From Candidatus Shapirobacteria bacterium (GTDB taxonomy: Bacteria; Patescibacteriota; Microgenomatia; UBA12405): 56,130 bases of DNA. Of this stretch, positions 14,969-43,107 are shown in pieces; positions within the stretch are counted from its first letter, which is position 1; each line of letters begins with the position of its first letter. Under the pieces are notes generated by a model, which was not told the DNA's origin, searched no databases, and saw only the letters and a list, made by a program, of their open reading frames with translations. The translations under genes and the position numbers were made by a program. The DNA is taken from contig DPKG01000001.1 of NCBI GenBank assembly GCA_003542615.1, forward strand, positions 1 to 56,130. Reading direction: 5' to 3'.

Positions 14969-15367
14969 TCACGGATTTCTCACCCGATAATTACAAGTTA
15001 CCGCCGGTGATCCACCACAACTTGTACCAACACTTGTACCTCCGGACTCCAAATAGGCATCCAAAGTATAGGTATAAGACGTCACCTGGGTATACACATA
15101 ATCATAATCCTTTGGATCGCTTGGCCATTCCTGTAAAAATTCCGTCACCAAATATGTTTCAGCATCCGTCGGATAAATTCCATTTTCCTGTTTATAAAGT
15201 TCCAGAGCTACTCTGATTTTTTCCAAATCTGCCATCCTTTTACTATCTCTGGCTTTCTCATTGGTTCCGGTAAATGTCACTATCCCTACTACCGATATCA
15301 CCATAATAATTGTCATTACTACAATCAATTCGATTAAAGAAAATCCTTTTTTGTTTTTAGCTTTCAT
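14969..15367 (-). CDS. Prepilin-type pilin (GspG/PulG-like)
   Basis: MKAKNKKG|FSLIELIVVMTIIMVISVVG ... KARDSKRMADLEKIRVALELY. Confidence 0.8.
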   Translation of the reverse strand: MKAKNKKGFSLIELIVVMTIIMVISVVGIVTFTGTNEKARDSKRMADLEKIRVALELYKQENGIYPTDAETYLVTEFLQEWPSDPKDYDYVYTQVTSYTYTLDAYLESGGTSVGTSCGGSPAVTCNYRVRNP

Positions 15368-15386
15368 TTTTATTATTTTTTTAATT

Positions 15387-15424
15387 TCCCTCCTTTTTCA
15401 AGGGAGGGGATAGGGGTGGGTTTT
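15387..15424. repeat. G/C-rich hairpin repeat, copy A (intergenic)
   Basis: tccctcctttttcaagggaggggataggggtgggtttt: stem ccctcc/ggaggg followed by G-runs. Related to copies at 18221, 18381 and 25782. Confidence 0.7.
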
Positions 15425-15427
15425 GCC

Positions 15428-15862
15428 CTATTGTTGATTTTTAACACAAAAATAAGCCCCACTGGAAGCCCAAACACAGTTATTAGTTGTCGAATTACCT
15501 GCCGCCGTATTTTCTACCGCTGCACAAGCACAATACCCACCGGTCACTGTTCCCGGATAAGAATAAGCTGTCCAACCTACCCCTTTTGGATCAGTCGGAA
15601 ACAATTCCAATACTATCTGGCCATTAGCAGTCCAGCTAGCCGGGGCCGAAGTGTTAACCGGATATGAATATGTTCCACTCAGTGAATAATATTGCTCCGC
15701 TGCAATTTTAATCGCATTCATATCCTCCAATCTTCTGGCATCTCTGGCTTTCTTTTGTGCTGCCGAAAAACTGACCGACACCAAAGCCGTCAAAATTCCA
15801 ATAATCGAAATACTCACCAAAAGTTCAAAAAGTGTAAATCCTCTTCTGTTATTTATTTTCAT
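15428..15862 (-). CDS. Prepilin-type pilin
   Basis: MKINNRRG|FTLFELLVSISIIGILTAL ... KKARDARRLEDM. I prefer the internal ATG at 15862. The track start at 15925 would add 21 residues before the signal peptide and overlap the upstream gene. Confidence 0.75.
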   Translation of the reverse strand: MKINNRRGFTLFELLVSISIIGILTALVSVSFSAAQKKARDARRLEDMNAIKIAAEQYYSLSGTYSYPVNTSAPASWTANGQIVLELFPTDPKGVGWTAYSYPGTVTGGYCACAAVENTAAGNSTTNNCVWASSGAYFCVKNQQ

Positions 15863-15900
15863 TTCTATAATTTTAATTACTAATTTAAGTATCTTTTCTC

Positions 15901-16359
15901 CTAATTTGCACAAACTACGAACCATTTTTCACTTGTACTATCTGTTATCCCCGCACCACAGACAGTATTCGTAATTGCACACCTCATTTGCGAATCTGCT
16001 ACATCCTCCCCGGTCGCCGCCTCCAAAGGCACGCACAACTGAAATCCATCGCCGTTATTAACCTGAGAATAATAATAGGTATAACCTATGCCCGAAGCTG
16101 AAGGTAAATACGAACCAAGTGTCACCCCAATACCCGTTACCTGACTTCCCGGCGGATAACTCTGTCTATCATTATAATAAAGCCTCAGGGCATTTTTGAC
16201 TGCCGTCATATCCTGCTTTTTTTGAGAATCTTTAGCCCTTTCTCTGGCCCCCATAAAATTTGGAAGCAATATTGCCGTCAAAGTAGCAATAATACTAATC
16301 GCTACCAACAACTCGATAAGCGTAAAACCTTTATTTTTATAAATCTGATAATCGTGCAT
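15901..16359 (-). CDS. Prepilin-type pilin
   Basis: MHDYQIYKNKG|FTLIELLVAISIIATLTAIL ... RERAKDSQKKQDM. Confidence 0.75.
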   Translation of the reverse strand: MHDYQIYKNKGFTLIELLVAISIIATLTAILLPNFMGARERAKDSQKKQDMTAVKNALRLYYNDRQSYPPGSQVTGIGVTLGSYLPSASGIGYTYYYSQVNNGDGFQLCVPLEAATGEDVADSQMRCAITNTVCGAGITDSTSEKWFVVCAN

Positions 16360-16831
16360 TTGGGCTTATGATGGCAAAATTATAATCATGACTACAAAAA
16401 TTATAAGGATTACCGTTATTCAGTTTATTGTAATCCGAGTCCAGATTATTTTCCAAATTAGAAAACAATCCATACATTTTTTGATCAGCCGAAACTACAT
16501 AACAATATTGATAAGGCGGACTGTTTATTCTATTTTCTGTTGGAACCGTTGCCATATAAGTATAGCCATCATCCTCAAAAACTCCTCCCCAATGTATTAT
16601 CTCACCACTAATTAATTGAATTTCACCAAGACTTGATCTGGGAAATTCTCCATAATCGGTATAATACATTTCCAAAGCCTTACCCAAAGCACTGATATCA
16701 CCCTTTCTTTGAACGTCTCTGGCTTTTCTTTGTGCCGTCATAAATTGAGCCACCGTAATTGTTGTCAAAATTCCCATAATCACTATCACTATCAACATCT
16801 CAATCAATGTAAACCCTTTTTTATTTTTCAT
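16337..16831 (-). CDS. Prepilin-type pilin
   Basis: MKNKKG|FTLIEMLIVIVIMGILTT ... QRKARDVQRKGDI. Confidence 0.8.
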   Translation of the reverse strand: MKNKKGFTLIEMLIVIVIMGILTTITVAQFMTAQRKARDVQRKGDISALGKALEMYYTDYGEFPRSSLGEIQLISGEIIHWGGVFEDDGYTYMATVPTENRINSPPYQYCYVVSADQKMYGLFSNLENNLDSDYNKLNNGNPYNFCSHDYNFAIISPNARLSDL

Positions 16832-16886
16832 TTTATTCTGGTTTTTGTCTTTATTTCCTAAATTAAATATACAACAATTTTAAAAA

Positions 16887-17543
16887 TTAATTACTACAAG
16901 TTGGTCCACAACAATCTGTAACACAAATTGCTGCATTTTCGCCATTATTATCAGCATAACACCCGCCGGGAGTAGTCAAATCACAACTAACCACTGATTG
17001 GCATCCCGAAGGTCCACAATCCGTACTACAAATACCACTACATGTTGACGATATAACATATTCATACCAATTCATATTTGTACTTGATACTCCATAATTA
17101 ACTTCCTGGCTTGGCAACAATACCCCTCCGCCTCCGACATTTCTAAAACTGTCATACCAATCCTCCGGAATATCGGCATCATTAACATTGTCCAAATTTG
17201 TCAAAATCTTAAACCACCTCGGACAATCCACATCGTCCACCACAATATAATATTGACTGCCATCGGGATCGCATGGCCATCTTTGTAACCAAGGAGCAAA
17301 ATCATCCGAATTACACGCCAATCCGGCCAACACCGTACTGGTCGGATAACAGCCATCATGATCATTACTATATTCCTCAAAAGCCACACTCAATCTTTTC
17401 AAATCCTTCTTTCGGGTTGCGTCCTGCCCCTTATTCAATACTCCCCAGGGATTCATCGAAGATACTACCAACGCTATCAACATCAACATAATCGTCATCG
17501 CCACTACCATTTCCATCAAAGTAAAACCCTGCATTTTTTTCAT
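16887..17543 (-). CDS. Prepilin-type pilin with a Cys-rich C-terminal module
   Basis: MKKMQG|FTLMEMVVAMTIMLMLIALVV. It has 14 Cys, most of them in the last 50 residues (CSGICSTDCGPSGCQSVVSC...CVTDCCGPTCSN). I prefer the ATG at 17543. The track start at 17609 overlaps pilD. Confidence 0.7.
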   Translation of the reverse strand: MKKMQGFTLMEMVVAMTIMLMLIALVVSSMNPWGVLNKGQDATRKKDLKRLSVAFEEYSNDHDGCYPTSTVLAGLACNSDDFAPWLQRWPCDPDGSQYYIVVDDVDCPRWFKILTNLDNVNDADIPEDWYDSFRNVGGGGVLLPSQEVNYGVSSTNMNWYEYVISSTCSGICSTDCGPSGCQSVVSCDLTTPGGCYADNNGENAAICVTDCCGPTCSN

Positions 17544-17563
17544 AATTAAATTTACCATATCTC

Positions 17564-18361
17564 TCACATAAAACCCTGCACCCAAAAAATAATTTTCTCC
17601 CCCCACCAATAAGCAACCACCACCCCCAAAATCAAAAATGGGCCAAATGGTATAGGTGTTGTTTTTTTTACCTTATTTAAAAGCATTAGACCACCTCCAA
17701 GCACTGCCCCTGTCAAAAAGGCAACATAGTAGGCCACGATTACCTTATACCCCAAAAACAATCCGATAAAAATAGCCAACTTAACATCTCCCAAACCCAT
17801 GCCTTTGCCTTTGGTAATTAAATATAAAACTCCCAAAAACAAAGTCGATCCCACTGCCGCCAAGATATGTTGCTGTAAGGGTGGATTTCCATATCCACTC
17901 CACAATAATACTCCGGCTCCAATTACCAAAATTACTGTCGAAAAATCCGGCAATATCATATACTTCAGGTCAAAAATAAAACTAAACACCAAAAACACCG
18001 AAATCAGCATCAAAAAAACTATCTGAAACCAATTTTCAAAATTTACCCAAAAAATAATCACAAAAATCACTCCCAAAATCAGTTCTATCAATGGATAAGA
18101 ATAGGGTAGGGGATTACCGCAACATCGGGATTTTCCCTTCAAAAAAAGCCAGGAGAATAGGGGGATATTGTCATACCAATTTAATTTTTCCCCGCACCAA
18201 TCACAAAATGATCTGTTTTTAGCCACCCTTTTCAAGGGGGGATCTAAAGGGGGTTTTATTTTATATCCCACCGCCACCCGATATTCCAGCATATTTACAA
18301 AGCTCCCCCAACTCATCCCCAACAAAAATACTAAAACCGATATAAATATTAAAATTACCAT
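17564..18361 (-). CDS. pilD: Prepilin peptidase / N-methyltransferase (A24 family) PilD
   Basis: Polytopic protein with CDWCGEKLNWYDNIPLFSWLFLKGKSRCCGNPL (Zn-finger region) and GMGLGDVKL (catalytic Asp motif). It contains repeat copy B in frame (KIKPPLDPPLKRV). Confidence 0.88.
   Translation of the reverse strand: MVILIFISVLVFLLGMSWGSFVNMLEYRVAVGYKIKPPLDPPLKRVAKNRSFCDWCGEKLNWYDNIPLFSWLFLKGKSRCCGNPLPYSYPLIELILGVIFVIIFWVNFENWFQIVFLMLISVFLVFSFIFDLKYMILPDFSTVILVIGAGVLLWSGYGNPPLQQHILAAVGSTLFLGVLYLITKGKGMGLGDVKLAIFIGLFLGYKVIVAYYVAFLTGAVLGGGLMLLNKVKKTTPIPFGPFLILGVVVAYWWGEKIIFWVQGFM
18221..18256. repeat. G/C-rich hairpin repeat, copy B (inside pilD, in frame)
   Basis: gccacccttttcaaggggggatctaaagggggtttt. 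It shares the exact 14-mer tcaaggggggatct with copy D in ligA. Confidence 0.7.
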
Positions 18362-18366
18362 AATTT

Positions 18367-18394
18367 ATTGTATTTTTTTTCCCCCTCTTGTCAA
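18367..18394 (-). promoter_or_regulatory. Candidate sigma70-type promoter for pilD (TTGACA-16-TACAAT), -10 box ending 5 nt from the ATG
   Basis: The reverse strand reads TTGACAagagggggaaaaaaaaTACAATaaattATG. The -35 box lies in the loop of repeat copy C. Confidence 0.5.
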
Positions 18395-18415
18395 AGAGGG
18401 GGTAGGGGGAGATTG
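18381..18415. repeat. G/C-rich hairpin repeat, copy C (intergenic)
   Basis: ccccctcttgtcaaagagggggtagggggagattg: 9-bp stem ccccctctt/aagaggggg with loop gtca. Confidence 0.75.
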
Positions 18416-18427
18416 GTCCTTCCCATT

Positions 18428-18455
18428 AAAAAACCCCGACTTCCGTCGGGGTTTT
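18428..18455 (-). terminator. Rho-independent terminator after the long-leader pilin gene
   Basis: The reverse strand reads aaaaccccgac-ggaa-gtcgggg followed by tttttt. It is a 7-bp GC stem starting 22 nt after the stop at 18477. Confidence 0.8.
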
Positions 18456-18476
18456 AATTACTTTCTTAAATTAGCA

Positions 18477-19190
18477 CTATTCCGGTACGCACCTAAATAA
18501 AGTATCATCAGCTGCCAAAGTAACGTAAGTAGCTGCCGCCATCTGTGCCACTGTAGCATCTATAACCTGGGTTGCAACACCTACATTATCAGTACCAGTT
18601 ACTGCCAACGACTTTAATTTCCAAGTAGCTGCTGCAGGCGGATTTCTATTTGCCTTTGCTTTTGGTACATAACAAACAAATATAGAATTCCCAGCAGTAT
18701 TATCAGTTTTAACAGCATACAACTCATCTTGAAAAGTCCAAGCCGGATCTGCCTGCACCCTGGTATAAGTTTTACTTAAAAACGATTCTTTAAGTTCTTG
18801 GGTTTCAATTAATTTCCCCGGAGTAGTCTGAGTATCACAACCGGTAGTCTGACTGACTCCAGTTGCCGTTAATGTTCCACACAAACCAAAACCTACCATA
18901 CTACTTCTACCTGAATACGCTTCATCTACCGAAAGAATAGTAGAACCAGTTACATCCATCCAAGGATAAGTAGCCGAATTAGTATAGTAACGCTCATAGG
19001 CGTTCAGGACTTCAGCCGCATCATTTTGAACTCTGGCATCCCGGGCTTTATTAGATTGCTCGATTGGATTGATAGTAGCCAATACCGCAACCGACAAAAT
19101 CGAGATCAAGGCGATAACGATTAATAGTTCCACCAAGGTGAAACCTTTCCCTGACAGCTTACGTACATTTTGGAGCAGTTTGTTTGTCAT
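18477..19190 (-). CDS. Type IV pilin with a 16-residue leader; candidate major pilin
   Basis: MTNKLLQNVRKLSGKG|FTLVELLIVIALISILSVAVLATINPIEQSNKARDA. It follows pilC and has its own terminator. Confidence 0.8.
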   Translation of the reverse strand: MTNKLLQNVRKLSGKGFTLVELLIVIALISILSVAVLATINPIEQSNKARDARVQNDAAEVLNAYERYYTNSATYPWMDVTGSTILSVDEAYSGRSSMVGFGLCGTLTATGVSQTTGCDTQTTPGKLIETQELKESFLSKTYTRVQADPAWTFQDELYAVKTDNTAGNSIFVCYVPKAKANRNPPAAATWKLKSLAVTGTDNVGVATQVIDATVAQMAAATYVTLAADDTLFRCVPE

Positions 19191-19198
19191 ATTTTTCA

Positions 19199-19222
19199 GT
19201 CATCCTGAATTTATTTCAGGAT
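19199..19222 (+). repeat. Hairpin repeat GTCATCCTGAA-N5-TTCAGGATC (copy 2 of 3)
   Basis: gtcatcctgaatttatttcaggatc, in the 67-nt pilC-pilin spacer, 9 nt from the pilin ATG. Confidence 0.6.
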
Positions 19223-19257
19223 CTTTAATTATTAAAATCTTAATTCATTATTGAACA

Positions 19258-20469
19258 CTAAAATTGCGATGTCAAGTTATAAATCGGCACTATCACCGCC
19301 ACCACCAAAAATCCAACTCCAATTCCCAACACAATCATAATCAACGGCTCGATCGCCGCCGTCAAACCTTTTACTGATTGTTCCGCTTCTGTCGAAAAAT
19401 ATTTGGCCACTTTTAGCAACACTTCATCCAACTTTCCCGTCGCTTCTCCGGTGGCCACCATTTGCGTCACAATCGGTTGAAATACCCCCGCCTCTTCAAA
19501 AGACTCCGACACATTAAAACCTTTTTCCACTCTTTCGGCAATTTTTAAATATGCCCTCCGGTAAACTTCATTATCGGCAACATTGGACACAATTCTTAAT
19601 GCTTCCACCAAAGATATTCCGGCCGTCAACAACATCGATAATGTCCTATTGGTATTGGCTACCACCGTTTTTTTGGTCAAATCACCAATAATCGGTAATT
19701 TCATAAAAATTTCATCTCTTTTATATCTGAAATTTTCATTTTTATCACCGGCTTTCATTACCGAATATATTCCCAAAGGTATCATTGGAAATAAAAACCA
19801 CAACTTTACCGTCCAAGTCGATATCGTCATCAGGGCCACTGTAATTGCCGGCATCTTCGACCCAAAATCTCCATACAGACTTAAAAGTTTAGGTATTACA
19901 AATACCATCATGATAAAAGCCACTATCAACATTCCGATAACCACAATTATTGGATAAATCATGGCTCCTTTTACCTTACCCCTAAACTCGGTGTCCGCCT
20001 CCAAACTATCCGCCAATTTTGACAACACATCTTCCAGCACTCCGCCTTCTTCACCGGCCTTGACCGAAGCCACGTAAGCTTCCCCGAAATAATTTTTGTA
20101 TTTCTCCAAAGCTTTTCCCAACGGTTGTCCCGACCGCACGATAGTCAAACAATCATCAATAATTTGATACATCACACTCCCCGAAGGACTCTGATTCCTC
20201 AACAAAGACAATGCGTCAGTCAGAGCCAAACCGGCTGTCATCATCGTCGACAGTTGACGGGTCAAATTTGAAATTTGTTTCCCGGTAACCCGATTAAACA
20301 TCCGTGAGTGCAACTCCTTAAATATATTATCTTTATCCTCGTTAACCTTTATCGGCACCAAACCATTTCCCTTTATCGACGATACCACCTCATTTATATC
20401 CATTGCCTCCAAAGTACCGTTTACGGTTTTTCCATTCCAATCTTTAGCTTTAAATTTATATTTCTTCAT
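19258..20469 (-). CDS. pilC: Type IV pilus inner-membrane platform protein PilC (GspF family)
   Basis: 403 aa with a duplicated GspF-type domain and 3 TM blocks. It lies between pilT and the pilin gene. Confidence 0.88.
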   Translation of the reverse strand: MKKYKFKAKDWNGKTVNGTLEAMDINEVVSSIKGNGLVPIKVNEDKDNIFKELHSRMFNRVTGKQISNLTRQLSTMMTAGLALTDALSLLRNQSPSGSVMYQIIDDCLTIVRSGQPLGKALEKYKNYFGEAYVASVKAGEEGGVLEDVLSKLADSLEADTEFRGKVKGAMIYPIIVVIGMLIVAFIMMVFVIPKLLSLYGDFGSKMPAITVALMTISTWTVKLWFLFPMIPLGIYSVMKAGDKNENFRYKRDEIFMKLPIIGDLTKKTVVANTNRTLSMLLTAGISLVEALRIVSNVADNEVYRRAYLKIAERVEKGFNVSESFEEAGVFQPIVTQMVATGEATGKLDEVLLKVAKYFSTEAEQSVKGLTAAIEPLIMIVLGIGVGFLVVAVIVPIYNLTSQF

Positions 20470-20472
20470 TTA

Positions 20473-21546
20473 TTAAATCTGAAATTTTTGACTTCTCAGT
20501 CTGTTTTGTAATTCGTCCGGTTTTAAGGCATAACTCATTGCTATCTCTTCTTTAACTTTATTGGTTTTTACCAAAGTTGCCAGTGAACTTTCCAAACTAA
20601 TCATCCCCAAATCCGAACTGGTTTGAATAATATTATCAATCATAAAATTTTTACCCTCTCTTATCGAATTTCTTACTGCCGGATTAGCAATCAACACCTC
20701 CACCGCCGGTACCCGACCTCCGTCCAAAGAGGGGAGTAGTCTCTGGGAAATTACCGCCGTAATTACCGTTGCCAACTGAGTTCTGATTTGAGATTTTGAT
20801 ACCTCCGGAAATACGTCAATAATTCTATCTATCGTTTGTGCCGCTGAATTTGTATGTAATGTCGAAAATACCAAATGTCCCGTTTCCGCCACCGTCAACG
20901 CCGAAGAAATTGTTTCCAAGTCCCGCATCTCACCCACAAACACTACATTAGGATCCTGACGTAAACAAGATCTCAGGGAATTTTCAAAACTCAAGGTATC
21001 CGAATGAACTTCTCTTTGAGAGATTATCGATTTTTTTGGTTTGATCACATATTCAATCGGATCCTCAATGGTAACTATATGACTATTCAAATTTTCATTT
21101 ATCTGATTCAACATCGAAGCTACCGTAGTCGATTTTCCATGCCCTGTCGGACCGGCAACAATTACAAAACCCTGCTTTTCATTTATTATATTTGCACAAA
21201 TCTCCGGTAAATTTAAATCTTTCAAAACCGGAATTTCATTTGGAACCACCCTCAGTGAACACGCCAATCTTCCCAAGGCAAAATACATATTTGCCCTAAA
21301 CCTAGCCATCGGCGTTGAAATAGAAAAATCCAATTCCCGATCTTCCAAAAGAATTTTCTTTTGCTCTTCATCTACCAAAGTCATCAGCATTTCCGTCATT
21401 GCTTCATCGCTTACTTCTCCAAAATTCGTTACGTTAGCCAATACTCCATGCACCCGAAGCTTTGGCCACTCTCCCACGGAAATATGTACATCAGATGCTC
21501 CATTCGACAGAGCCAATTCCAATAGTTGTTTGATTTTTATATCCAT
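20473..21546 (-). CDS. pilT: Twitching motility / retraction ATPase PilT
   Basis: 357 aa: ASDVHISVGEWPKLRVHG, Walker A GPTGHGKST, and the GspE-family Asp and His boxes. Confidence 0.88.
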   Translation of the reverse strand: MDIKIKQLLELALSNGASDVHISVGEWPKLRVHGVLANVTNFGEVSDEAMTEMLMTLVDEEQKKILLEDRELDFSISTPMARFRANMYFALGRLACSLRVVPNEIPVLKDLNLPEICANIINEKQGFVIVAGPTGHGKSTTVASMLNQINENLNSHIVTIEDPIEYVIKPKKSIISQREVHSDTLSFENSLRSCLRQDPNVVFVGEMRDLETISSALTVAETGHLVFSTLHTNSAAQTIDRIIDVFPEVSKSQIRTQLATVITAVISQRLLPSLDGGRVPAVEVLIANPAVRNSIREGKNFMIDNIIQTSSDLGMISLESSLATLVKTNKVKEEIAMSYALKPDELQNRLRSQKFQI

Positions 21547-21552
21547 ATTTTT

Positions 21553-23304
21553 TTAATATTCTGCAACTCTTTTAACTTCTTCTAGTGTAGTCGTTCCTTC
21601 CAAAACTTTCACGTACCCATCCTGTTTCATTGTCAACATTCCCTCTTCCATCGCCTGATTTTCAATATCACTAGCCGATGCCTTACTCACAATTAATTTA
21701 CTGATTTTTTCAGTTATCGGCATCACTTCGTAAATAGCAATTCTTCCAAAATAACCGGTGTTACCACATACTTCACACCCCTGAATCTGTTTGATCGTCA
21801 TCTTCTTTCCTTCCTTCTTCCACTTGTCCTCAACCATATCGTAAATTGGCCCCAACACTTTTTTCATATCAGCTTCAATATCCGGTGGAATCGGAATATC
21901 TTTAAAACATTCCTTGCAGACACGGCGCAATACCCGCTGGCCTACCACACAATTTAAAGAAGATACCAACAAAAACGGTTCCACTCCCATATCAATCATT
22001 CTCGGCGGTACTCCGGAAGCATTATTGGTGTGCAAAGTTGAAAACACCAAATGTCCGGTCAACGCCGCGTTAATAGCCAAATCAGCCGTTTCGGCATCAC
22101 GGACCTCTCCCACCATCATAATATTTGGATCTTGCCGCAAAAATGCCCGCAACGCATTTGCAAAAGTTAATCCCGCCTGCGAGTTTACCTGAACCTGACT
22201 AATTCCCTTAATTTGATATTCCACCGGATCTTCAATCGTCATTACATTTACTTTTGACGAAGACACTCTATCCAAAACCGAATACAAAGTTGTCGTTTTT
22301 CCCGATCCTGTCGGTCCGCAAACAATAATAATTCCGTGCGGTCTTTCGATTGATTCCATCAAATTTTTCAAAGCCAAACCTCTCAAACCCAAATCCGGCA
22401 ACGAAGGTACTTTTTGGGCTTTTTTCAAAAGACGCATTACCACTTTTTCCCCATAAGTCGTCGGTACTGTCGAAACCCGCAAATCCACATCATTATCATC
22501 CGCTGAAAAAAAGAAGCGACCATCCTGAGGTATTCTTTTTTCGTCAATTTTCATATTTGACAAAATCTTAATTCTGGACACCACCGCGTCATGAACATTA
22601 CGGGGTAATAAATATTTTTCCTGTAAAATACCGTCAATTCTATATCTGATTCTGACGTTGTCCTCCTGAGGTTCAATGTGAATATCAGAAGCCCTTGATT
22701 TGACCGCAAACTCCAAAATTGTCGATACTATTTTTGCAACCGGCGCTTCCGAAGAAACTTTTTTATTTTTCGCTACCAGGGTACTCCGCTCAACTTCGTC
22801 CTTCTTTCTTTCATCCAGAGCTTTTGTCACTTCCGAAGTTATTCCTTTTTCTCTAAGATATTTTTCCTTAATAAAGGCCACGATTTGTTTCTCTGTTGAC
22901 ATCGCCACTTTCACCGACAAGCCCGTCTTCTTTTCCAAAAATTCTATCGTTTCCAGATCAAGAGGATTGACCATTGTTACCATCAATACTTTTTCTTTGG
23001 TATCCAAACCATAGGGAACTACTTTATATTTTTCCGCCACCGATTCCGGTACCATCGACAGAGCTTCCGGTGCAAATCCAATTGAATCCAAGTCAACATA
23101 AGGTACTCTGATAAACTCAGACTTTGCCTCGGTCAATTGCTCCTCAGTCACCAACCTCATCGATCTGATTATCTCTTCTTCACTCTCTCCGGTTTTTACC
23201 TGTTTTAAGGATATTTCTTCACTTACCTTTATATCGATTAAGCCCTTATCAACCAGGACATCACGCAAATTTTTATATGTCTTTTGGGCAGAACCATTAA
23301 TCAT
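21553..23304 (-). CDS. pilB: Type IV pilus assembly ATPase PilB (GspE family)
   Basis: 583 aa: N-terminal GSPII_E_N-like domain, Walker A GPTGSGKTT, and the tetracysteine CKEC...CEVCGNTGY. Confidence 0.9.
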   Translation of the reverse strand: MINGSAQKTYKNLRDVLVDKGLIDIKVSEEISLKQVKTGESEEEIIRSMRLVTEEQLTEAKSEFIRVPYVDLDSIGFAPEALSMVPESVAEKYKVVPYGLDTKEKVLMVTMVNPLDLETIEFLEKKTGLSVKVAMSTEKQIVAFIKEKYLREKGITSEVTKALDERKKDEVERSTLVAKNKKVSSEAPVAKIVSTILEFAVKSRASDIHIEPQEDNVRIRYRIDGILQEKYLLPRNVHDAVVSRIKILSNMKIDEKRIPQDGRFFFSADDNDVDLRVSTVPTTYGEKVVMRLLKKAQKVPSLPDLGLRGLALKNLMESIERPHGIIIVCGPTGSGKTTTLYSVLDRVSSSKVNVMTIEDPVEYQIKGISQVQVNSQAGLTFANALRAFLRQDPNIMMVGEVRDAETADLAINAALTGHLVFSTLHTNNASGVPPRMIDMGVEPFLLVSSLNCVVGQRVLRRVCKECFKDIPIPPDIEADMKKVLGPIYDMVEDKWKKEGKKMTIKQIQGCEVCGNTGYFGRIAIYEVMPITEKISKLIVSKASASDIENQAMEEGMLTMKQDGYVKVLEGTTTLEEVKRVAEY

Positions 23305-23313
23305 ACTACTATC

Positions 23314-23342
23314 ATAGTAACTTCTTTCATCTTTAGTTACAA
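23314..23342 (-). promoter_or_regulatory. Candidate pilB promoter (TTGTAA-17-TACTAT), 9 nt from the ATG
   Basis: The reverse strand reads TTGTAActaaagatgaaagaagtTACTATgatagtagtATG. Its -35 box overlaps the holB -10 box TACAAT (23338-23343) on the other strand. Confidence 0.4.
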
Positions 23343-23351
23343 TATCAATAC

Positions 23352-23987
23352 ATGAACTTCCCGTCTGTTATTATTACCGGCACTGACTCATCACCGATTT
23401 CAAAACAAACCGACAAACTTTTTGCCGCCCTCAAAAATCAAAATCAACCCAACAATCCGGATTTAATTGTTATCGACCAACAATCAGGATATACCATCGA
23501 AAACATCAGAAAAATCAACCACTTTTTTTCCCAAAAACCAATTAAATTCAACACCAAAATCGTTCTTATTGTTGACGCCCAAAATCTCAACCTTGAATCT
23601 CAAAACGCTCTTTTAAAAACCCTGGAAGAACCCCCCAAAGATTGTTATCTCATTCTCACCTGCAGTCACACCCATTCCCTTATCCCCACCATAATTTCCC
23701 GCTGTCACCTAATCAAAACTACCCCAAATTCCACCAAATCAGATAACAAACCCTTAACTCCTCTTTCCTCTGTCAAAGACAATCTCCTTCTTTCTGAAAA
23801 AAACAGCCTCTCGCCACCGGAAACTCTAATCTATCTCCGAGATCAGCTAAATATTTACCACCAACTTCTAAACAAAAATCCAAATTTACCCCATCTTAAT
23901 TTCATCAAAAAAATTCTTAAGGCTATCGACATGGTCAAATCCAATGTCGACCCCCGTTCTGCCCTCGATTATTTGTTATTAAGCTAA
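23352..23987 (+). CDS. holB: DNA polymerase III delta-prime-like clamp-loader subunit (short form)
   Basis: NALLKTLEEPP and SRC motif (IISRCHLI); 211 aa. Confidence 0.7.
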   Translation: MNFPSVIITGTDSSPISKQTDKLFAALKNQNQPNNPDLIVIDQQSGYTIENIRKINHFFSQKPIKFNTKIVLIVDAQNLNLESQNALLKTLEEPPKDCYLILTCSHTHSLIPTIISRCHLIKTTPNSTKSDNKPLTPLSSVKDNLLLSEKNSLSPPETLIYLRDQLNIYHQLLNKNPNLPHLNFIKKILKAIDMVKSNVDPRSALDYLLLS

Positions 23988-24030
23988 CAAAACTGATTTC
24001 CGCATTTTCCCCTCAAAAAATGTAAAAATC

Positions 24031-24039
24031 TGTTATAAT
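24031..24039 (+). promoter_or_regulatory. Extended -10 promoter element TGTTATAAT upstream of fic
   Basis: TGnTATAAT at 24031-24039; ATG at 24050. Confidence 0.4.
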
Positions 24040-24049
24040 CTTTCTCAAG

Positions 24050-25183
24050 ATGTTTTTACCTGTCTTTAGCATTAATAACAAAATTCTCAAAAACATATGT
24101 GCCATTGAAGCGGCCAAGGCCATAATTGACGAAGCTCCTCTCATCCCGGCCTACGAAAAACAATTTCAGCAGGAAGCTGTCGTCCGAACCGTCCATTTTG
24201 GCACCAGAATTGAAGGTAACGATCTTACTTTCCAGGAAGTCGCCAGACTGGTCGAAGGTCAAAAAGTCACCGCCGGCCAAAGAGATATCCAGGAAGTCAT
24301 TAACTATCGAAATGTCGTTTCCTATCTTGAAGAATTATGGGCTCTCTACGACGCCAATATGCCTCTTCCTGAAGAAAAAAATCCCATCGATTTCGACAGT
24401 ACTACTCCCAAACGTTTTTTTTACAGCGAAACCATCATCAAAAAAATTCACCATCTGACTACCGACAAAATTATCACCGAAACCGAACTGGGCAAATATC
24501 GTCACCAACAAGTTGTACTCAAAAATACCCGTACCGGAGAAATTGCCCATCGACCGCCTCCTGCCATTGAAGTTCCTTATTTAATTACCGATCTGGTTGC
24601 CTGGCTAAACTCCGACCAATCAATAGACATCCATCCCGCCGTAAAATCGGCCATTTCTCAATATATTCTGGTTGCCATCCATCCTTTTATTGAAGGTAAC
24701 GGCCGGGTTGCCCGCGCTTTTGCCATGCTTCCTCTTTATGTCGAAGGTTATGACATCCGCCGTCTTTTCTCTTTGGAAGAATTTTTTGATAGAAATGCCG
24801 AAGATTATTACAATACCATCCAATCTACCCATCAATTATCATCCGAGGTTTTCAAAAGAGATCTTTCCGGTTGGATTGAATATTTTACCAATGCTCTGGC
24901 CATCGAACTTACCCGGGTCAAACAAAAAGTTCAAAATTTAAGCCACGATCTCAAACTCAAACAAAAACTGGGTGGCAAACAAGTTCACCTAAGCGAACGA
25001 CAAATCAAACTAGTCGAATATATGCAACAATTTGGCGGTCTCCGTATGCCCGATGCTCAATCACTTTTACCCATGGTTTCCGACGATACTCTCTGGAGAG
25101 ATCTTAAAAAACTAATCGATGATGGTGTTGTCGAAAAACGCGGCTCCACCAAAGGTGCCTACTACTGTCTGGTCAGCGCTTAA
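24050..25183 (+). CDS. fic: Fic family protein (Fic_N plus Fic core plus C-terminal winged-helix)
   Basis: Fic active-site motif HPFIEGNGRVARAF; N-terminal helix region with TRIEGN; C-terminal wHTH-like segment (LSERQIKLVEYMQQFGGLRMPDAQSLL). Confidence 0.88.
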   Translation: MFLPVFSINNKILKNICAIEAAKAIIDEAPLIPAYEKQFQQEAVVRTVHFGTRIEGNDLTFQEVARLVEGQKVTAGQRDIQEVINYRNVVSYLEELWALYDANMPLPEEKNPIDFDSTTPKRFFYSETIIKKIHHLTTDKIITETELGKYRHQQVVLKNTRTGEIAHRPPPAIEVPYLITDLVAWLNSDQSIDIHPAVKSAISQYILVAIHPFIEGNGRVARAFAMLPLYVEGYDIRRLFSLEEFFDRNAEDYYNTIQSTHQLSSEVFKRDLSGWIEYFTNALAIELTRVKQKVQNLSHDLKLKQKLGGKQVHLSERQIKLVEYMQQFGGLRMPDAQSLLPMVSDDTLWRDLKKLIDDGVVEKRGSTKGAYYCLVSA

Positions 25184-25217
25184 ATCCCAATCTCTCTAAA
25201 TCTTCTCTATAAAAAGA

Positions 25218-25223
25218 TATAAT
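25218..25223 (+). promoter_or_regulatory. TATAAT -10 box 6 nt upstream of the ligA ATG (possible leaderless transcript)
   Basis: gaTATAATcaaaccATG. Confidence 0.35.
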
Positions 25224-25229
25224 CAAACC

Positions 25230-27203
25230 ATGATTACCCTCAAAGACCTCGACCTAAAAAAAATGTCCACCGAAGAATTGGGCGAATTGCTAATTGATGC
25301 CAAAAAAGTCTACTACACCACCTCCAAACCCATCATGGACGACCATACCTACGATACTCTCGAAGAAATTTTACGTCAAAAAAACCCACACCACCGGATA
25401 TTTTCCAAAGCCGGCCATCCTAACTTTGATACCGGTTTTCCCAAAAAAAAACACAGCATGCCCATGGGTTCCCAAAATAAAGTCAATAACTTTTCCGATC
25501 TCATCCATTATTTTGAACTCAAAAAAATCCCCCAAAACTCCGAATTTATAGTCCAACCCAAATGTGACGGTTTATCATTGGAAATTGAATATCAAAACGG
25601 TCAGTTATTGGACGCCATTACCCGCGGAGACGGCAAAGTAGGGGATATCATCACTCAAAATGTAATTAAAATGAAAAATTTCCGTGAAAAACTTAATTTA
25701 AATTTTACCGGATCTATCCGTTGTGAAATCGTAGTCACCAAAACCGATTTCCAAAAATTAAATAAGATCGTATCCAAAAAGGCCCTCCTTTCTCAAGGGG
25801 GGATCTCCGAAGGGGAAGGGGGTTTTTATTCCAATCCTAGAAACGCCGCCTCCGGCATTTCCCAGCGCCTCGATAGTCTATATTCAAATTATTGCACTCT
25901 GGTTGCCGTAGACCTGATTACTCCCCATCAAAACTTTTCCACCGAAACTAAGGAATTAGATTATATAAAAAAATTAGGTATCGATCCGGTCGAATCCCAT
26001 CTTTGTCAAAACTTCAATCAAATCGAAACAATTTACCAGGAATTTCTCCAAAATAAACGCCAAAATTACGACTACGACATCGATGGTCTGGTTATCAAAA
26101 TTAACGATCAAAAAATCCAACAACAACTCGGATCCAAAAACCAACGCCCCAAAGGTCAACTTGCCTACAAATTTCCCAGTGAAACAGACCAAACCAAACT
26201 CATCTCCGTCAACTGGCAAACCGGTCCTATGGGTACTATCACCCCGGTAGCCGAAATCGAACCCATCCAAATATCCGGTGCCGTCATCACCTTTGCCTCC
26301 CTGGCAAATTATGACCTGATCAAAAAATATGACATCAATATCGGCGATATTGTCCAAATTAGTCGCCGCGGTGACGTTATTCCGCATATCGACAAAGTCA
26401 TTACCAAAGTCAATTCTGGCTACATCCTCGCCCCCCAAAAATGTCCCTCCTGCAATACCACCTTAATAACCGAAAACAAATTTTTAAAATGTCCCAACAC
26501 TTATTCCTGTCCGGCTCAAATTTTGGGTGTCCTACGGCTTTTTTGTTCTATTTTAGATATCAAAGGTATTTCTCAAAAAACCATCCAAAAACTTCACACC
26601 TCCGAAAAACTTAATTTACCGGGAGATTTTTATAATTTAACAGTCAACGACTTTAAAAATCTAGATGGTTTAGGCGAAAAATCCGGCAATAATATTATCC
26701 ACCAAATCCAACTTAAAAAAAATCTGACTCTCAAAGAAATCTTTAATGCCGCCAGCATTCCCGATTTTTCCTCAGCCAGAATTCAACAAATTATCGATGC
26801 CGGCTTCAACACTCCCTCCAAAATCCTAAACCTTCAGGTTTCCGACCTCGAACCTCTCGTCGGTTTTCAAAAAACTTTGGCCACCAAAATAGTTCAGGGT
26901 ATCTCTTCCCGAACCGAAATAATTCAATCAATTTTAGACCATGTCACCATCAAAACTATAAAATCCACCCTCAAACTCCAAGGCCTCACCTTTGTTATTA
27001 CCGGGCAACTTTCCCGTCCCCGCAAAGATATTATTGATGAACTCCAAACCCTCGGTGCCAAAATCTCTTCCTCCGTCACCCAAAATACCAATTACCTAAT
27101 CACCAATGAAACCAATTCAAATTCATCCAAATTCAAAACAGCCCAAAAGTTAGGTATAAAAATCATCAACGAAAATCAGTTAAAAAGTCTTCTTACTCAA
27201 TAA
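25230..27203 (+). CDS. ligA: NAD-dependent DNA ligase LigA
   Basis: Adenylation motif QPKCDGLS, NPRNAASG, Zn-finger CPSCNTTL...CPNTYSCPAQ, HhH region and C-terminal BRCT. It contains repeat copy D in frame (ALLSQGGISEGEGGF). Confidence 0.92.
   Translation: MITLKDLDLKKMSTEELGELLIDAKKVYYTTSKPIMDDHTYDTLEEILRQKNPHHRIFSKAGHPNFDTGFPKKKHSMPMGSQNKVNNFSDLIHYFELKKIPQNSEFIVQPKCDGLSLEIEYQNGQLLDAITRGDGKVGDIITQNVIKMKNFREKLNLNFTGSIRCEIVVTKTDFQKLNKIVSKKALLSQGGISEGEGGFYSNPRNAASGISQRLDSLYSNYCTLVAVDLITPHQNFSTETKELDYIKKLGIDPVESHLCQNFNQIETIYQEFLQNKRQNYDYDIDGLVIKINDQKIQQQLGSKNQRPKGQLAYKFPSETDQTKLISVNWQTGPMGTITPVAEIEPIQISGAVITFASLANYDLIKKYDINIGDIVQISRRGDVIPHIDKVITKVNSGYILAPQKCPSCNTTLITENKFLKCPNTYSCPAQILGVLRLFCSILDIKGISQKTIQKLHTSEKLNLPGDFYNLTVNDFKNLDGLGEKSGNNIIHQIQLKKNLTLKEIFNAASIPDFSSARIQQIIDAGFNTPSKILNLQVSDLEPLVGFQKTLATKIVQGISSRTEIIQSILDHVTIKTIKSTLKLQGLTFVITGQLSRPRKDIIDELQTLGAKISSSVTQNTNYLITNETNSNSSKFKTAQKLGIKIINENQLKSLLTQ
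25782..25826. repeat. G/C-rich hairpin repeat, copy D (inside ligA, in frame)
   Basis: gccctcctttctcaaggggggatctccgaaggggaagggggtttt. Confidence 0.7.
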
Positions 27204-27216
27204 GATATACTCTCTT

Positions 27217-27468
27217 ATGTCGCATCCTTTTGATAATCCCAACAATCTGTCGGAATACCTATTCGCTCTTAAACAAGCCGATTTCAAACTTACCTTACTC
27301 CCTTGTATTAAACGACTCAACGATACCTGTACTTCACTCAAACCAGTAAGCGTTGAAAGTTGCCTCAATTGTCGTCCTGTTACTCAAAGCCAGGATCTGA
27401 TTCGCCGACATGCCGGATATCAAGCCTTAGTTAATGCTCCACCTGGTAGTTTAAACTTAGAAAAATAA
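27217..27468 (+). CDS. Hypothetical 83-aa protein with four Cys
   Basis: ORF only. It fits tightly between ligA and pth on the same strand. No family recognised. Confidence 0.4.
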   Translation: MSHPFDNPNNLSEYLFALKQADFKLTLLPCIKRLNDTCTSLKPVSVESCLNCRPVTQSQDLIRRHAGYQALVNAPPGSLNLEK

Positions 27469-27490
27469 TATTAAATCTGACAATACTCTT

Positions 27491-39899: not shown

Positions 39900-40874
39900 T
39901 TACACATCTTTTTTCTTGTTCCCACTATGATATTTTTCGTGTACTTCCCGCAATCGGGCATCAGTAATATGTGTATAAACCTGAGTCGTTACAATATTTT
40001 TATGTCCTAAAAGTTCCTGAATCGATCTCAAATCGGCCCCTGCCCTCAACAAGTCCGTCGCCATCGAATGACGTAAAGTATGGGGCGTCGCATCCACCGG
40101 TAACTTAGCTTTTCGTACATATTCTTTTACTAATCTTTGCACCGATCTTACCGACAATCTTCTCTTTTCATCATCATCTGTGATCTCTTTTTTACCGGAA
40201 TTTCGGATAAATAATGGTTTGTAATTATCCGTCCTTGATCTTAAGTATCTGGACAAATATTCTGCCGCTCTTTTGGATAAAAACACCAACCTTGTTTTAC
40301 CTCCTTTACCGATAACCCCAAATTCCCGGGTGTCAAAATTTATTTTGTCTCTGTTTAAATACGTCAATTCCGACACCCGCAAACCGGTAGAAAACAAAGT
40401 CTCTAATATCGCTTTGTCTCTGAGACCATTTTTTGACGAAAGTAAAGGTTGATTCAACAACAAATCAACCTGTTTACTATCCAAAAATTTCAACGAATGA
40501 TTTTTATTTTTTGGTACATCCAATTTTTCCGGTTGCATTGTTTGATAATCATTTTTTACCAACCACTTTAAAAATGATCTTAAAGCAATGATGTAATAAC
40601 CCTGAGTGACAATTTTCATCTCACTGTTTGGTTCTACACCTTTCTGTCTGGAAAGATAAAGCCTGAACCTTCTGACTGTGTCCTGATTAATATCTGATAA
40701 CATTGCCGCCTTATCAATTTCTTTTTCCAAAAAAGTACAAAACACTTCTAAGTAATGTTTATAATTTCGGACTGTCAGCCGGGAGCAATTCCTTTCAATT
40801 TCCAAATGTTCCAAAAATTGCCTTATTAAAGTCATTAAATCTTTTTCTTGAGCCATTGTATATGAGGATAACAC
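39900..40874 (-). CDS. Tyrosine recombinase, XerC/XerD family
   Basis: 324 aa: N-terminal SAM-like core-binding domain (LIRQFLEHLEIERNCSRLTVRNYKHYL) and catalytic residues in GLRVSEL, HTLRHSMATDLL, LLGHKNIVTTQVYTH. Confidence 0.88.
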   Translation of the reverse strand: MLSSYTMAQEKDLMTLIRQFLEHLEIERNCSRLTVRNYKHYLEVFCTFLEKEIDKAAMLSDINQDTVRRFRLYLSRQKGVEPNSEMKIVTQGYYIIALRSFLKWLVKNDYQTMQPEKLDVPKNKNHSLKFLDSKQVDLLLNQPLLSSKNGLRDKAILETLFSTGLRVSELTYLNRDKINFDTREFGVIGKGGKTRLVFLSKRAAEYLSRYLRSRTDNYKPLFIRNSGKKEITDDDEKRRLSVRSVQRLVKEYVRKAKLPVDATPHTLRHSMATDLLRAGADLRSIQELLGHKNIVTTQVYTHITDARLREVHEKYHSGNKKKDV

Positions 40875-40921
40875 GATTTCATCGCTTCTAGAGGCTTTAG
40901 TGAAGCCATATATATTTTATA

Positions 40922-40933
40922 CCTATATATAGG
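40922..40933. repeat. Perfect 12-bp palindrome CCTATATATAGG upstream of the recombinase gene
   Basis: Read directly. It belongs to the TATAGG motif cluster flanking the gene. Confidence 0.6.
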
Positions 40934-41143
40934 CATTTATTACAATTTCCCTACCATTTTTAGCTTAGGGGAGTCAAAAAATAGCCATTTGTGCCTAAAG
41001 CCAGAAAATTCAAAATATAAGCAAACCGGAGGATAAACAGGTATTTGGCAAAATACATATTAATTAAAAAACTTATTAATAATTAATATTTAAAAAATTA
41101 TTTTTTTATTATTTTATGCCCTCCCCTCCACTCCCGTTTTTAT

Positions 41144-41175
41144 ATATGTCGCAAAAGATACATTGTGCGACATAT
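41144..41175. repeat. 10-bp-stem inverted repeat atatgtcgca-N12-tgcgacatat
   Basis: Read directly in the 730-bp non-coding stretch. Confidence 0.6.
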
Positions 41176-41606
41176 TAAATATTGATACCTTTCCCATAGG
41201 GAACTCCTCTTTTCCTAACTCCTCTCCTAATTGCTGTCAGATCATTTTTTAATTTAATAAATTAATTAACTATATACTGACTATCTCTCCCCCTAAGCCC
41301 TTGGCACCCTAATACTCCTCCCGCTAAAGTTTTCCACAGACTATATCATTACCTATCATATATCAAACTATATCATCTGTGAAAATTATAGGATATATTG
41401 TGAAAATAAATATAATATTATAGGACAATATATTATAGGTCATTCCCCTTCCCTATTTGTCCCTGAAACAAAAAAATCTTACAATTGATAATAATTATAA
41501 TTAAATTTAAAGCTAAACCATGCCCATTCAATTTCTCAAAATTTAATTTCAACCACCCAAACCCTCCTATAGAACCTATATTTTCCCTTACCCACTCCCC
41601 TTTTAT

Positions 41607-42419
41607 TTATTCTCCCCAGCTTGTCATTCCTACTACCCCGATCAACACCGCCAAAGCCACCCACAACAAACCTGTCCATGTCCTCTTAAACAGTCTTTCT
41701 CTGATATCCGCCTGCAACAACCCCAGTATTATGTAAAATACCGACACTAAATATACTGAGCCCTTAAAGATACCGACCGGCCAAAAAGAAAATATCAATG
41801 CCAGCTCTGCCATTACTATTGACGGAACTATCACATAAGCTGATATGCTTTTATTTTTTCCGTCATCAGGTAGTTCAATCGCAATCGCCCAAAATTGATA
41901 CAAAAATAAAAGCATCGATGTCAAAAACACGGCTATCGCATTTACCCAAAAATAAGTCCGAAAAGACAATATGGTGTCATAAGCAAAAAAAGCCGTCAAC
42001 AACATTACCATCAAAGAAAAAGTATAAGCCGCCCGATATAACGGCACTGTTTTATATCCAATCGCCACAAAAAAAATGTTTTCTATCGAAAAAATTACAT
42101 AACAGATTAATCCAAAAAAGATACTGGCCGGAATAGCCGTCAATAAATTATATGGAAATATAGCCATAAATAAACCAAAACCCACAAAAAATGCCACCGG
42201 TAAAGTCACCGGAACAATTTTGTTAAACAAGGACTCCTCAAATATTATCCCCAAACCAAACCAATAAATAAAAACAAGTAATACCACCCCCGCCATCAAC
42301 CCGTAATACCTGGCTTCAAACGGAAGTGAAATCAACATAAAAAAGATCAAACTTCCCAACAAAGATGAAGCAAAATATCTTAGTCTTTTAGGCATTGTAA
42401 GTAAAACCAGCAAAAACAC
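41607..42419 (-). CDS. Hypothetical polytopic membrane protein (about 8 TM)
   Basis: 270-aa hydrophobic ORF downstream of yebC on the same strand. The start is possibly at the internal Met (MPKRLRYF). Confidence 0.6.
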   Translation of the reverse strand: MFLLVLLTMPKRLRYFASSLLGSLIFFMLISLPFEARYYGLMAGVVLLVFIYWFGLGIIFEESLFNKIVPVTLPVAFFVGFGLFMAIFPYNLLTAIPASIFFGLICYVIFSIENIFFVAIGYKTVPLYRAAYTFSLMVMLLTAFFAYDTILSFRTYFWVNAIAVFLTSMLLFLYQFWAIAIELPDDGKNKSISAYVIVPSIVMAELALIFSFWPVGIFKGSVYLVSVFYIILGLLQADIRERLFKRTWTGLLWVALAVLIGVVGMTSWGE

Positions 42420-43098: not shown

Positions 43099-43107
43099 AA
43101 ATCTATT

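Follow-up and report, generated by a model that had tools for sequence, protein, structure and literature searches.

Short dispersed repeats of intrastrand-triplex design, between genes and in frame within them, in Candidatus Shapirobacteria

The stretch of DNA analyzed here (the window; 56,130 nucleotides, G+C content 39%) comes from Candidatus Shapirobacteria, a lineage of the Patescibacteria or Candidate Phyla Radiation (CPR). Between 5 and 23 kb it carries, on the − strand, a type IV pilus cluster (PilM, seven pilin-like genes, PilD, PilC, PilT and PilB), after which holB, a Fic gene, ligA and pth follow on the + strand. In this region lie four copies, A–D, of a short G/C-rich repeat. A first-pass annotation had described them as a family of hairpins, found between genes and in frame inside pilD and ligA, and had likened them to Rickettsia palindromic elements (RPEs). 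All four are present in the window as quoted, although B really spans 18222-18257 and D 25782-25827, each 1 nt off the positions first given. A scan for three successive blocks (pyrimidine arm, purine arm, mirror purine block) delimited the copies as follows; their two host genes and a neighboring hairpin are also listed.

15386-15424, + strand: copy A (three-block scan), intergenic, between two pilin genes
17564-18361, − strand: pilD (prepilin peptidase), host of copy B; Pfam A24_N_bact and Peptidase_A24, with an N domain of 93 residues against 82 profile positions
18223-18257, + strand: copy B (three-block scan), inside pilD codons 35-47, antisense, read as IKPPLDPPLKRVA
18381-18414, + strand: copy C (three-block scan), intergenic; on the − strand it lies upstream of pilD, 20 nt from the ATG
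18430-18455, no strand assigned: bidirectional terminator-like hairpin AAAACCCCGACTTCCGTCGGGGTTTT, outside the repeat, but a typical neighbor of it
25230-27203, + strand: ligA (NAD-dependent DNA ligase), host of copy D; Pfam DNA_ligase_aden, OB and BRCT domains
25782-25827, + strand: copy D (three-block scan), inside ligA codons 185-199, sense, read as ALLSQGGISEGEGGF

Each copy consists of a pyrimidine arm (Y), a loop, a complementary purine arm (R) and then a G-rich block (RH) that is the mirror image of R, with G staying G and A becoming A or T. The stems proposed earlier for these hairpins do exist, but that anatomy was incomplete: the G-runs make up a third strand that mirrors the purine arm. 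In copy A, Y (TTCCCTCCTTT, 15386-15396) is followed by a loop (15397-15399), R (AAGGGAGGGGA, 15400-15410), a 1-nt turn and RH (AGGGGTGGGTT, 15412-15422) plus TT, giving 11 triplets in which, with G.T wobble accepted as a pair, neither the Watson–Crick stem nor the third strand has a mismatch. Its hairpin energy is −21.4 kcal/mol, it recurs unchanged in the relative L001, and it sits 3 nt past the stop of the open reading frame (ORF) 15428..15925 and 20 nt ahead of the ATG of ORF 14969..15367. Copy C, with nine perfect triplets and one substitution in L001, is made of Y CCCCCTCTT (18381-18389), the loop GTCA (18390-18393), R AAGAGGGGG (18394-18402), TA and RH GGGGGAGAT(T) (18405-18414). The two genic copies are less regular. 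Copy B comprises Y CCACCCTT (18223-18230), a loop (18231-18233), R AAGGGGGG (18234-18241), a second loop (18242-18247) and RH AGGGGGTT (18248-18255) plus TT, with one Watson–Crick and one triplet mismatch in eight triplets. Copy D comprises Y GCCCTCCTT (25782-25790), the loop TCTC, R AAGGGGGGA (25795-25803) and RH AAGGGGGTT (25816-25824) plus TTT, with one mismatched pair and one mismatched triplet over nine pairs; its 12-nt second loop (25804-25815) contains a small nested hairpin. In the relative L004, the counterpart of D pairs perfectly along its stem and contains CCCCGAAGGGG as its nested hairpin.

The core pattern common to A–D, CCNCYYTTNTCAARG, matched four times on the + strand of the window and not at all on its − strand, and seven of the nine runs of five or more G on the + strand fell within B, C and D. 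The three-block scan, which was unbiased, returned exactly A–D on the + strand and one weak − strand match overlapping A; the reversed sequence, as a control, gave one match. The 14-mer TCAAGGGGGGATCT, pointed out earlier as shared by B and D, is not significant by itself: it was seen twice, and 10 of 100 shuffles gave at least two matches at up to 2 mismatches. Being within chance expectation, it was rejected as evidence for the family, which is nevertheless real by the pattern and the scan. The fold-energy z-scores of single copies (−0.3 to −1.9) were unremarkable, because the shuffles preserve G and C runs; the argument therefore rests on comparative data.

A rule-based scan covered 1.5 Mb of Shapirobacteria DNA, namely the window, the loci hit by the pattern and 80 ligA loci. 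For Y/R hairpins it recorded 261 strand hits at 156 unique places, and 6 when the sequence was reversed. Downstream of R, a mirror copy of it with at most one mismatch was present in 131 of 153 hairpins, compared with 73.9 ± 5.6 (maximum 90) when the tails of other elements were used, 73 for direct repeats and 11 on the upstream side; perfect mirror copies numbered 91 and perfect direct copies 17. Across 76 distinct triples with 43 distinct R arms, a G in R faced a G in RH in 391 of 419 positions, and an A faced A or T in 224 of 226. The two blocks therefore change together, as in AAGAGGGGG-ta-GGGGGAGATT, AAGGGAGA-ttt-AGAGGGATT, AGGGAGGG...GGGTGGGT and AAGGGGAG...GAGGGGTT. The possibility that the resemblance among copies would dissolve under proper statistics was not borne out, as the hairpin, mirror-block and window scans all exceeded their controls.

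The 131 triplex-type elements amount to about one per 11 kb. Their median length is 38 nt (range 31-50 nt) and loop 1 usually reads NNTC. In genome-wide matches, CCCTCCTTTTTCAAGGGAGGG is followed by a 2-4-nt turn or by a second, variable GC hairpin, and then by the terminal GGGTGGGTTT. In roughly half of the family, R and RH are kept apart by such a nested hairpin; of the 60 long second loops, 56 fold in this way, and the sequence of the stem varies among them. About two thirds of the elements (85) are intergenic and 46 lie inside open frames of at least 150 codons. The 20-mer CCCTCCTTTNTCAAGGGRGG, common to A and D, had 48 matches in the 596 Gb of GTDB DNA (one genome per species), of which ~24 were in Candidatus Shapirobacteria metagenome-assembled genomes (MAGs), a count that includes MAGs titled 'uncultured Gammaproteobacteria' with a Shapirobacteria-type LigA. 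The latter records ('uncultured Gammaproteobacteria bacterium', SRP.../binchicken; L056, L058, L061, L067, L068, L070 and others) encode a LigA ~60% identical to that of the window and bear the same repeats, which suggests that they are Shapirobacteria under a wrong label. In L132 (490-600), a relative with 72% identity, we also noticed upstream of pilD a tandem stack of partial and complete antisense triplex motifs belonging to another subfamily (AATCCCTCTAAATCTCCCTTTGACAAGGGAGA), remnants among them.

A mirror purine block cannot form Watson–Crick pairs with either arm. Such a block is what a purine-motif triple helix calls for, as its third strand runs antiparallel to the purine strand. The class II criteria of ITxF (PMC4666352) place the blocks in the order Y-R-RH on one strand, as found in A–D and in 131 of 153 hairpins. 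They set a Watson–Crick stem of 6-15 nt with at most one mismatch, and the stems here measure 11 (A, no mismatch), 9 (C, none), 8 (B, one) and 9 nt (D, one). For the third block, antiparallel to R, they allow one triplet mismatch (none in A and C, one each in B and D). They allow loops of 1-6 nt; the two loops have 3 and 1 nt in A, 4 and 2 in C, 3 and 6 in B, but loop 2 of D has 12 nt and 66 of the 131 elements exceed 5 nt. We consider it probable that A–D belong to a large Shapirobacteria family of short dispersed repeats with a class II purine-motif intrastrand triplex design. That the four copies form triplexes in DNA is a candidate property, read from the design of their sequence.

Both genic copies keep the frame of their host, B over codons 35-47 of pilD in antisense and D over codons 185-199 of ligA in sense, as had been claimed. 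For LigA, comparison with orthologs bore out an insertion, as homologous residues are not generally carried at the site of D. Among 120 protein homologs and 79 loci, the stretch from F..LN to YSNPRNA is 19 residues long in the majority (48 of 79 Shapirobacteria-type LigA), which have the short form LNQISEEKYSNSRNA. Of the other 31 loci, 22 hold a triplex motif, 5 a GTAG...CTAC palindrome resembling repetitive extragenic palindromes (REPs), 2 a hairpin of the GTCATTGCGAG type and 2 a remnant in decay. A LigA 96% identical to that of the window carries D with a better stem, and one 73% identical lacks the insert. Alignment to solved LigA structures left a 10-residue gap exactly over KALLSQGGIS, and in an AlphaFold model (mean predicted local distance difference test score, pLDDT, 87) residues 185-197 were the main segment below 50, modelled as coil between helices 171-187 and 203-211.

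The same loop of LigA accommodates other hairpins in frame, of the GTAG type in L067, L073, L094, L114 and L125 and of the GTCATTGCGAG type in L083 and L104. One REP-like hairpin of other species, GTAGAGACG...CGTCTCTAC, is read as VETLRATSLQ, and the loop of L094 holds three hairpins consecutively. In other species, triplex motifs occupy two further LigA hot spots, ahead of the VQPKCDG adenylation motif and ahead of F.TE.EKI.FL (L090 at 10322, L130 at 10304 and 10744, L093 at 1284); both spots are empty in the ligA of the window.

For PilD the case for an insertion is less clear-cut: the linker exceeds that of the shortest orthologs by only ~5 amino acids, but the Pfam profile by 11 residues. 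The site of B, a linker between transmembrane helix 1 and the Zn finger, is hypervariable among 120 PilD homologs. An 88%-identical PilD ortholog has a perfect element there, and in contig L001, with 92% identity, the triplex motif found at this site is perfect, differs from B and is read in another frame (THPNPSLEKGG). An AlphaFold model of PilD (pLDDT 91) was least confident at B, again a coil, between transmembrane helix 1 and the Zn finger.

Further in-frame hosts are RadA, TsaD (the same site in two species), the CCA-adding enzyme, TrxB (thioredoxin reductase) and a TsaC/TsaE fusion with two copies. In these proteins the repeat is mostly antisense and read as PTPNPSLEKGG or NPPALRAPSLEKGG. 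The same DNA is translated in several frames and from both strands into unrelated peptides (ALLSQGG, PALSREG, PTPNPSLEKGG, KPPLDPPLK), so that the encoded peptides appear to be by-products.

Presence of the element at orthologous sites is patchy. On a LigA tree built without the site, presence or absence changed at least 20 times, and filled and empty versions at 85-95% flank identity were found between tRNA genes, upstream of a gene and in LigA. A target-site duplication, sought in four filled/empty pairs, was not seen in any, and the boundaries of the insertions were ragged. One 'empty' site retained the RH tail only, and two empty LigA sites had a short pyrimidine tract at the place of the Y arm. 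Identical elements of 31-41 nt, including the nested hairpin, occupied different loci in 3-5 species; in species pairs sharing identical elements, LigA identity was 77% in one pair and 60% in another. Viral carriage was considered and rejected (three core matches in IMG/VR, none with a mirror tail), as was a DNA uptake sequence (DUS) or uptake signal sequence (USS), suggested by the pilus and competence context; neither the density of ~1 per 11 kb nor the three-block structure resembles those of such signals.

The GC skew of the + strand is negative across the whole window (−0.13 to −0.51 over 1-56130), independently of gene orientation, which implies a very strong asymmetry of the replication type with no origin or terminus inside the window. 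We computed the local skew around each element after removing it together with the 60 nt to its left and right. The G-rich strand of the repeat lay on the locally C-rich strand in 112 of 131 elements (p = 3e-17), and in independent, non-syntenic loci the figure was 45 of 49 (p = 8e-10). As the bias was present in sense (27 of 29), antisense (17 of 17) and intergenic copies (68 of 85), orientation follows the chromosome-wide strand asymmetry and not transcription. In most bacteria an excess of G over C marks the leading strand. If we assume the same here, the triplex-forming strand would be on the leading-strand template.

These observations could be accommodated by the following mechanism. Y and R would pair by Watson–Crick bonds, and RH would run antiparallel along R, the triplets being G*G.C, A*A.T and T*A.T. 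The elements would act at the level of DNA and not of RNA, because RNA, as stated by Holder et al. 2015 (PMC4666352), does not form triplexes of the purine motif. Frequent gain and loss without target-site duplication might occur by copying from other copies or by structure-provoked repair, with slippage across the hairpin as the route of loss. In coding DNA, selection would spare only in-frame, stop-free copies in tolerant surface loops, and the encoded peptides rich in Pro, Gly, Ser, Glu and Lys would be by-products. A triplex folded on the strand that is single-stranded during replication, the lagging-strand template, would stall the polymerase, and such copies would be lost; survivors would therefore be those whose triplex-forming strand is on the other template. 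Holder et al. 2015 (PMC4666352) cite the arrest of polymerases by triplexes of the purine type. The polarity of the elements is a possible in vivo footprint of a non-B DNA structure.

Several points weigh against this interpretation. In vivo dimethyl sulfate footprinting of the comparable E. coli repeat TM_ECO detected no triplex (PMC4666352), and the fit of B and D is imperfect, with a mismatched pair and a mismatched triplet in either copy. The reading of leading and lagging strands from GC skew is a convention that may not hold for this lineage. 'Empty' sites sometimes retain a tail or a pyrimidine tract, so that growth or decay in situ cannot be separated from insertion, and the filled/empty comparisons lack the target duplication. 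No mobilizing enzyme or transposase was present among the ~50 window ORFs scanned, the only recombinase being of the XerC/D type (39900-40874). Many of the copies at the LigA locus are orthologous, and the counts therefore overstate the number of independent events. Finally, the conserved loop motif and the exact identity of elements across species hint at a sequence-specific partner or function, which a purely passive model does not explain.

A rival reading takes the elements for a regulatory module, in which the loop on the opposite strand gives a TTGAnn −35 box, A and C are promoters of leaderless or short-leader mRNAs, and the genic copies are accidents. The three best sigma-70-like matches in 15200-18700 fall on − strands, that of C scoring 11/12, that of A 10/12 and that of B 9/12, with a −10 box ending 4-5 nt before the ATG for A and C. 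On the − strand of C, the loop TTGACA is followed by 16 nt, TACAAT, 5 nt and the pilD ATG, the best promoter-like match of that interval. Seven species keep TTGAnn-16 nt-TA(A/C)AAT-5 nt-ATG upstream of a pilD-sized ORF while the arms differ, and a start codon occurs 25-32 nt past the hexamer in 13 of 38 intergenic copies. TACAAT or TAAAAT stands 5 nt before the pilD ATG in the window (18359-18394, − strand) and in L059, L065, L081, L089, L116 and L119. The sequences suggest a leaderless or very short-leader pilD mRNA, and that some copies may donate a −35 box to short-leader or leaderless genes. However, the total of promoter-like sites (14) was not above that in shuffles (10.7 ± 3.1), most of the cases at 27-29 nt are one orthologous site, orientation follows GC skew and not gene direction, and one third of the elements lie in genes, in both orientations. 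The potential intrastrand triplex (PIT) elements of E. coli, as cited in PMC4666352, showed neither promoter nor terminator activity. A −35 box would have no need of a mirrored third block. With its evidence resting largely on one orthologous site, and unable to explain the genic copies or the third strand, promoter donation is improbable as an account of the family. Two other expression-related roles were rejected: an intrinsic terminator, since the G block separates the T-run from the hairpin and a single weak tool match fell inside A, and a hairpin sequestering the Shine–Dalgarno sequence, since AAGGAGGG is ~20 nt from the ATG and too distant.

An ordinary miniature palindromic transposable element, resembling RPEs, REPs or MITEs (miniature inverted-repeat transposable elements), would be a simple hairpin mobilized in trans by a transposase or a REP-associated tyrosine transposase (RAYT), its G-runs being incidental. 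Dispersal, patchy orthologous presence and in-frame copies would be expected of it, as would hairpins nested within elements and the REP-like GTAG...CTAC hairpins in the same LigA loop of other species. A plain hairpin does not, however, predict a third block that co-varies with the purine arm over 43 arm variants; there are no terminal inverted repeats beyond the stem, no target-site duplication, no GTAG head and no transposase among the ORFs scanned in the window, and the length of 31-50 nt compares with ~100-150 bp for RPEs. We find this explanation decidedly improbable. A family of G-quadruplex motifs, whose G-tracts fold into four strands while the C-rich arm merely competes, is very unlikely: copy A (GGGAGGGGATAGGGGTGGG) is a canonical four-tract motif, but it is the only one among the window copies, four tracts of at least three G occur in 18 of 131 elements, and a quadruplex would not require A/T positions to mirror the purine arm in 224 of 226 cases. 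We would hardly credit the absence of any element, that is, chance resemblance of low-complexity G/C patches or selection for linker peptides rich in Pro and Gly. The 14-mer alone is within chance and the host sites are variable linkers, yet 156 unique hairpins contrast with 6 in the reversed-sequence controls, two thirds of the copies are intergenic, and the peptides from different frames and strands are unrelated.

The triplex design itself has a precedent in BoxC of E. coli, re-described as PIT (Hoyne et al. 2000, as cited) and later as TM_ECO by Holder et al. 2015 (PMC4666352). According to these authors, a stable triplex of TM_ECO forms in vitro but was not demonstrated in vivo; the repeat lacks promoter and terminator activity, is always intergenic without strand bias in E. 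coli K-12, and is linked to local genomic instability (PMC4666352). With BoxC/PIT/TM_ECO, known from E. coli, other Proteobacteria and Cyanobacteria, the Shapirobacteria elements share the class II purine-motif order of 5′-Y, loop, R, loop and reverse-Hoogsteen block, a G/C-rich composition, a length of ~35-40 nt, multiple copies, the lack of mobile-element genes and local turnover between relatives. To our knowledge, BoxC/PIT has been known for 25 years without an established function or in vivo evidence of folding. The sequences of the two differ: the TM_ECO consensus (CCCTCNCCC N3-6 GGGNGAGGG N3 GGGNGAGGG) had no match in the window or in any Shapirobacteria locus, and its three matches were all in the non-Shapirobacteria L010 and L021. 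Whereas TM_ECO is intergenic and unbiased, 46 of the 131 Shapirobacteria elements are in long open frames and 85-92% have one orientation relative to GC skew. About half of them carry a nested hairpin in loop 2, beyond the 1-6-nt loops of ITxF. Their host is an AT-rich patescibacterial genome of roughly 1 Mb, with ~1 element per 11 kb.

RPEs are non-coding palindromic repeats of ~100-150 bp, specific to Rickettsia, which occur between genes and in frame in conserved proteins, where they add a surface peptide; a mirror purine block has not been described for them. The Shapirobacteria elements likewise comprise intergenic copies and in-frame copies in conserved proteins. They are set apart from RPEs by length (31-50 nt) and host, the RPE consensus not having been compared. 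The earlier likening to RPEs is thus supported as a description of behavior, in-frame residence in conserved proteins, but not as family membership (RPEs are mentioned in PMC10969869). A literature search on palindromic elements, in-frame insertions and repetitive elements in CPR/Patescibacteria found no relevant paper. REPs and bacterial interspersed mosaic elements (BIMEs), associated with RAYT, are very small dispersed hairpin repeats without coding capacity, with nesting and a GTAG/CTAC head; small dispersed repeats of cyanobacteria were reportedly described by Elhai et al. in 2008. The likeness to both lies in very small hairpin repeats that lack coding capacity and in the nesting of one small repeat in another. 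Unlike REPs, the present elements have no GTAG/CTAC head, are often intragenic and possess a third-strand block. The ORFs scanned in the window included no RAYT/Y1 transposase, a result that does not extend to other parts of the genome, and the REP-like GTAG...CTAC hairpins of Shapirobacteria are a separate family that uses the same LigA loop. From MITEs the elements differ in showing no target-site duplication in filled/empty comparisons and in their ends, CCCTCC... and ...GGGTGGGTTT, which are not inverted repeats. They are best filed as a coding-invading, strand-polarized variant of the known BoxC/PIT class of intrastrand triplexes, and probably not as relatives of RPEs, MITEs or REPs.

As to the surroundings, an Rfam 15 scan of the window at the gathering threshold gave three tRNAs only and left the repeats unmatched. 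A look-up of the exact window LigA sequence returned no record. Its closest named relatives are Candidatus Shapirobacteria (7860 LigA homologs were found), and the nearest contigs, L001-L004, are short and of groundwater metagenome origin. Terminator hairpins similar to that at 18430-18455 stand 3′ of many elements in other Shapirobacteria. L001 has at ~1075-1110 an extra GC hairpin, GGGCGGGCACAAGGCACGCCC, between a pilin stop codon and the terminator, without counterpart at 18456-18476 of the window. A 274-bp segment between ligA and pth (27212-27485), which holds an ORF of 83 amino acids with no Pfam match (27217..27468), is missing in the 97.5%-identical contig L004. The XerC/D-type tyrosine recombinase gene (39900-40874) adjoins a stretch of lower GC content (0.35, 40000-46000), whose skew of −0.5 is the most extreme of the window.

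A bolder proposal, which we regard as unlikely, is that Shapirobacteria, and perhaps Patescibacteria more widely, undergo active structure-dependent genome remodeling: a mechanism reading the folded triplex would let copies spread or convert between loci, the replication fork would dictate their orientation, and the elements would time and again write new peptide loops into essential proteins and donate −35 boxes to genes such as pilD. The pyrimidine tracts at 'empty' LigA sites hint that integration might be guided to them. If this proposal were true, the strand bias would be the first genomic signature of purine-motif intrastrand triplexes forming in living cells.

The BoxC/PIT design is dense in this lineage and occurs in frame in core proteins, among them a DNA ligase, a prepilin peptidase, RadA and TsaD, with hot spots that are used repeatedly. 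The elements account for one type of insertion peculiar to the lineage, and for spurious low-complexity peptides, in proteins of Patescibacteria, which bears on annotation, alignment and phylogeny. How essential enzymes cope with loops that repeats encode could be studied in this natural setting.

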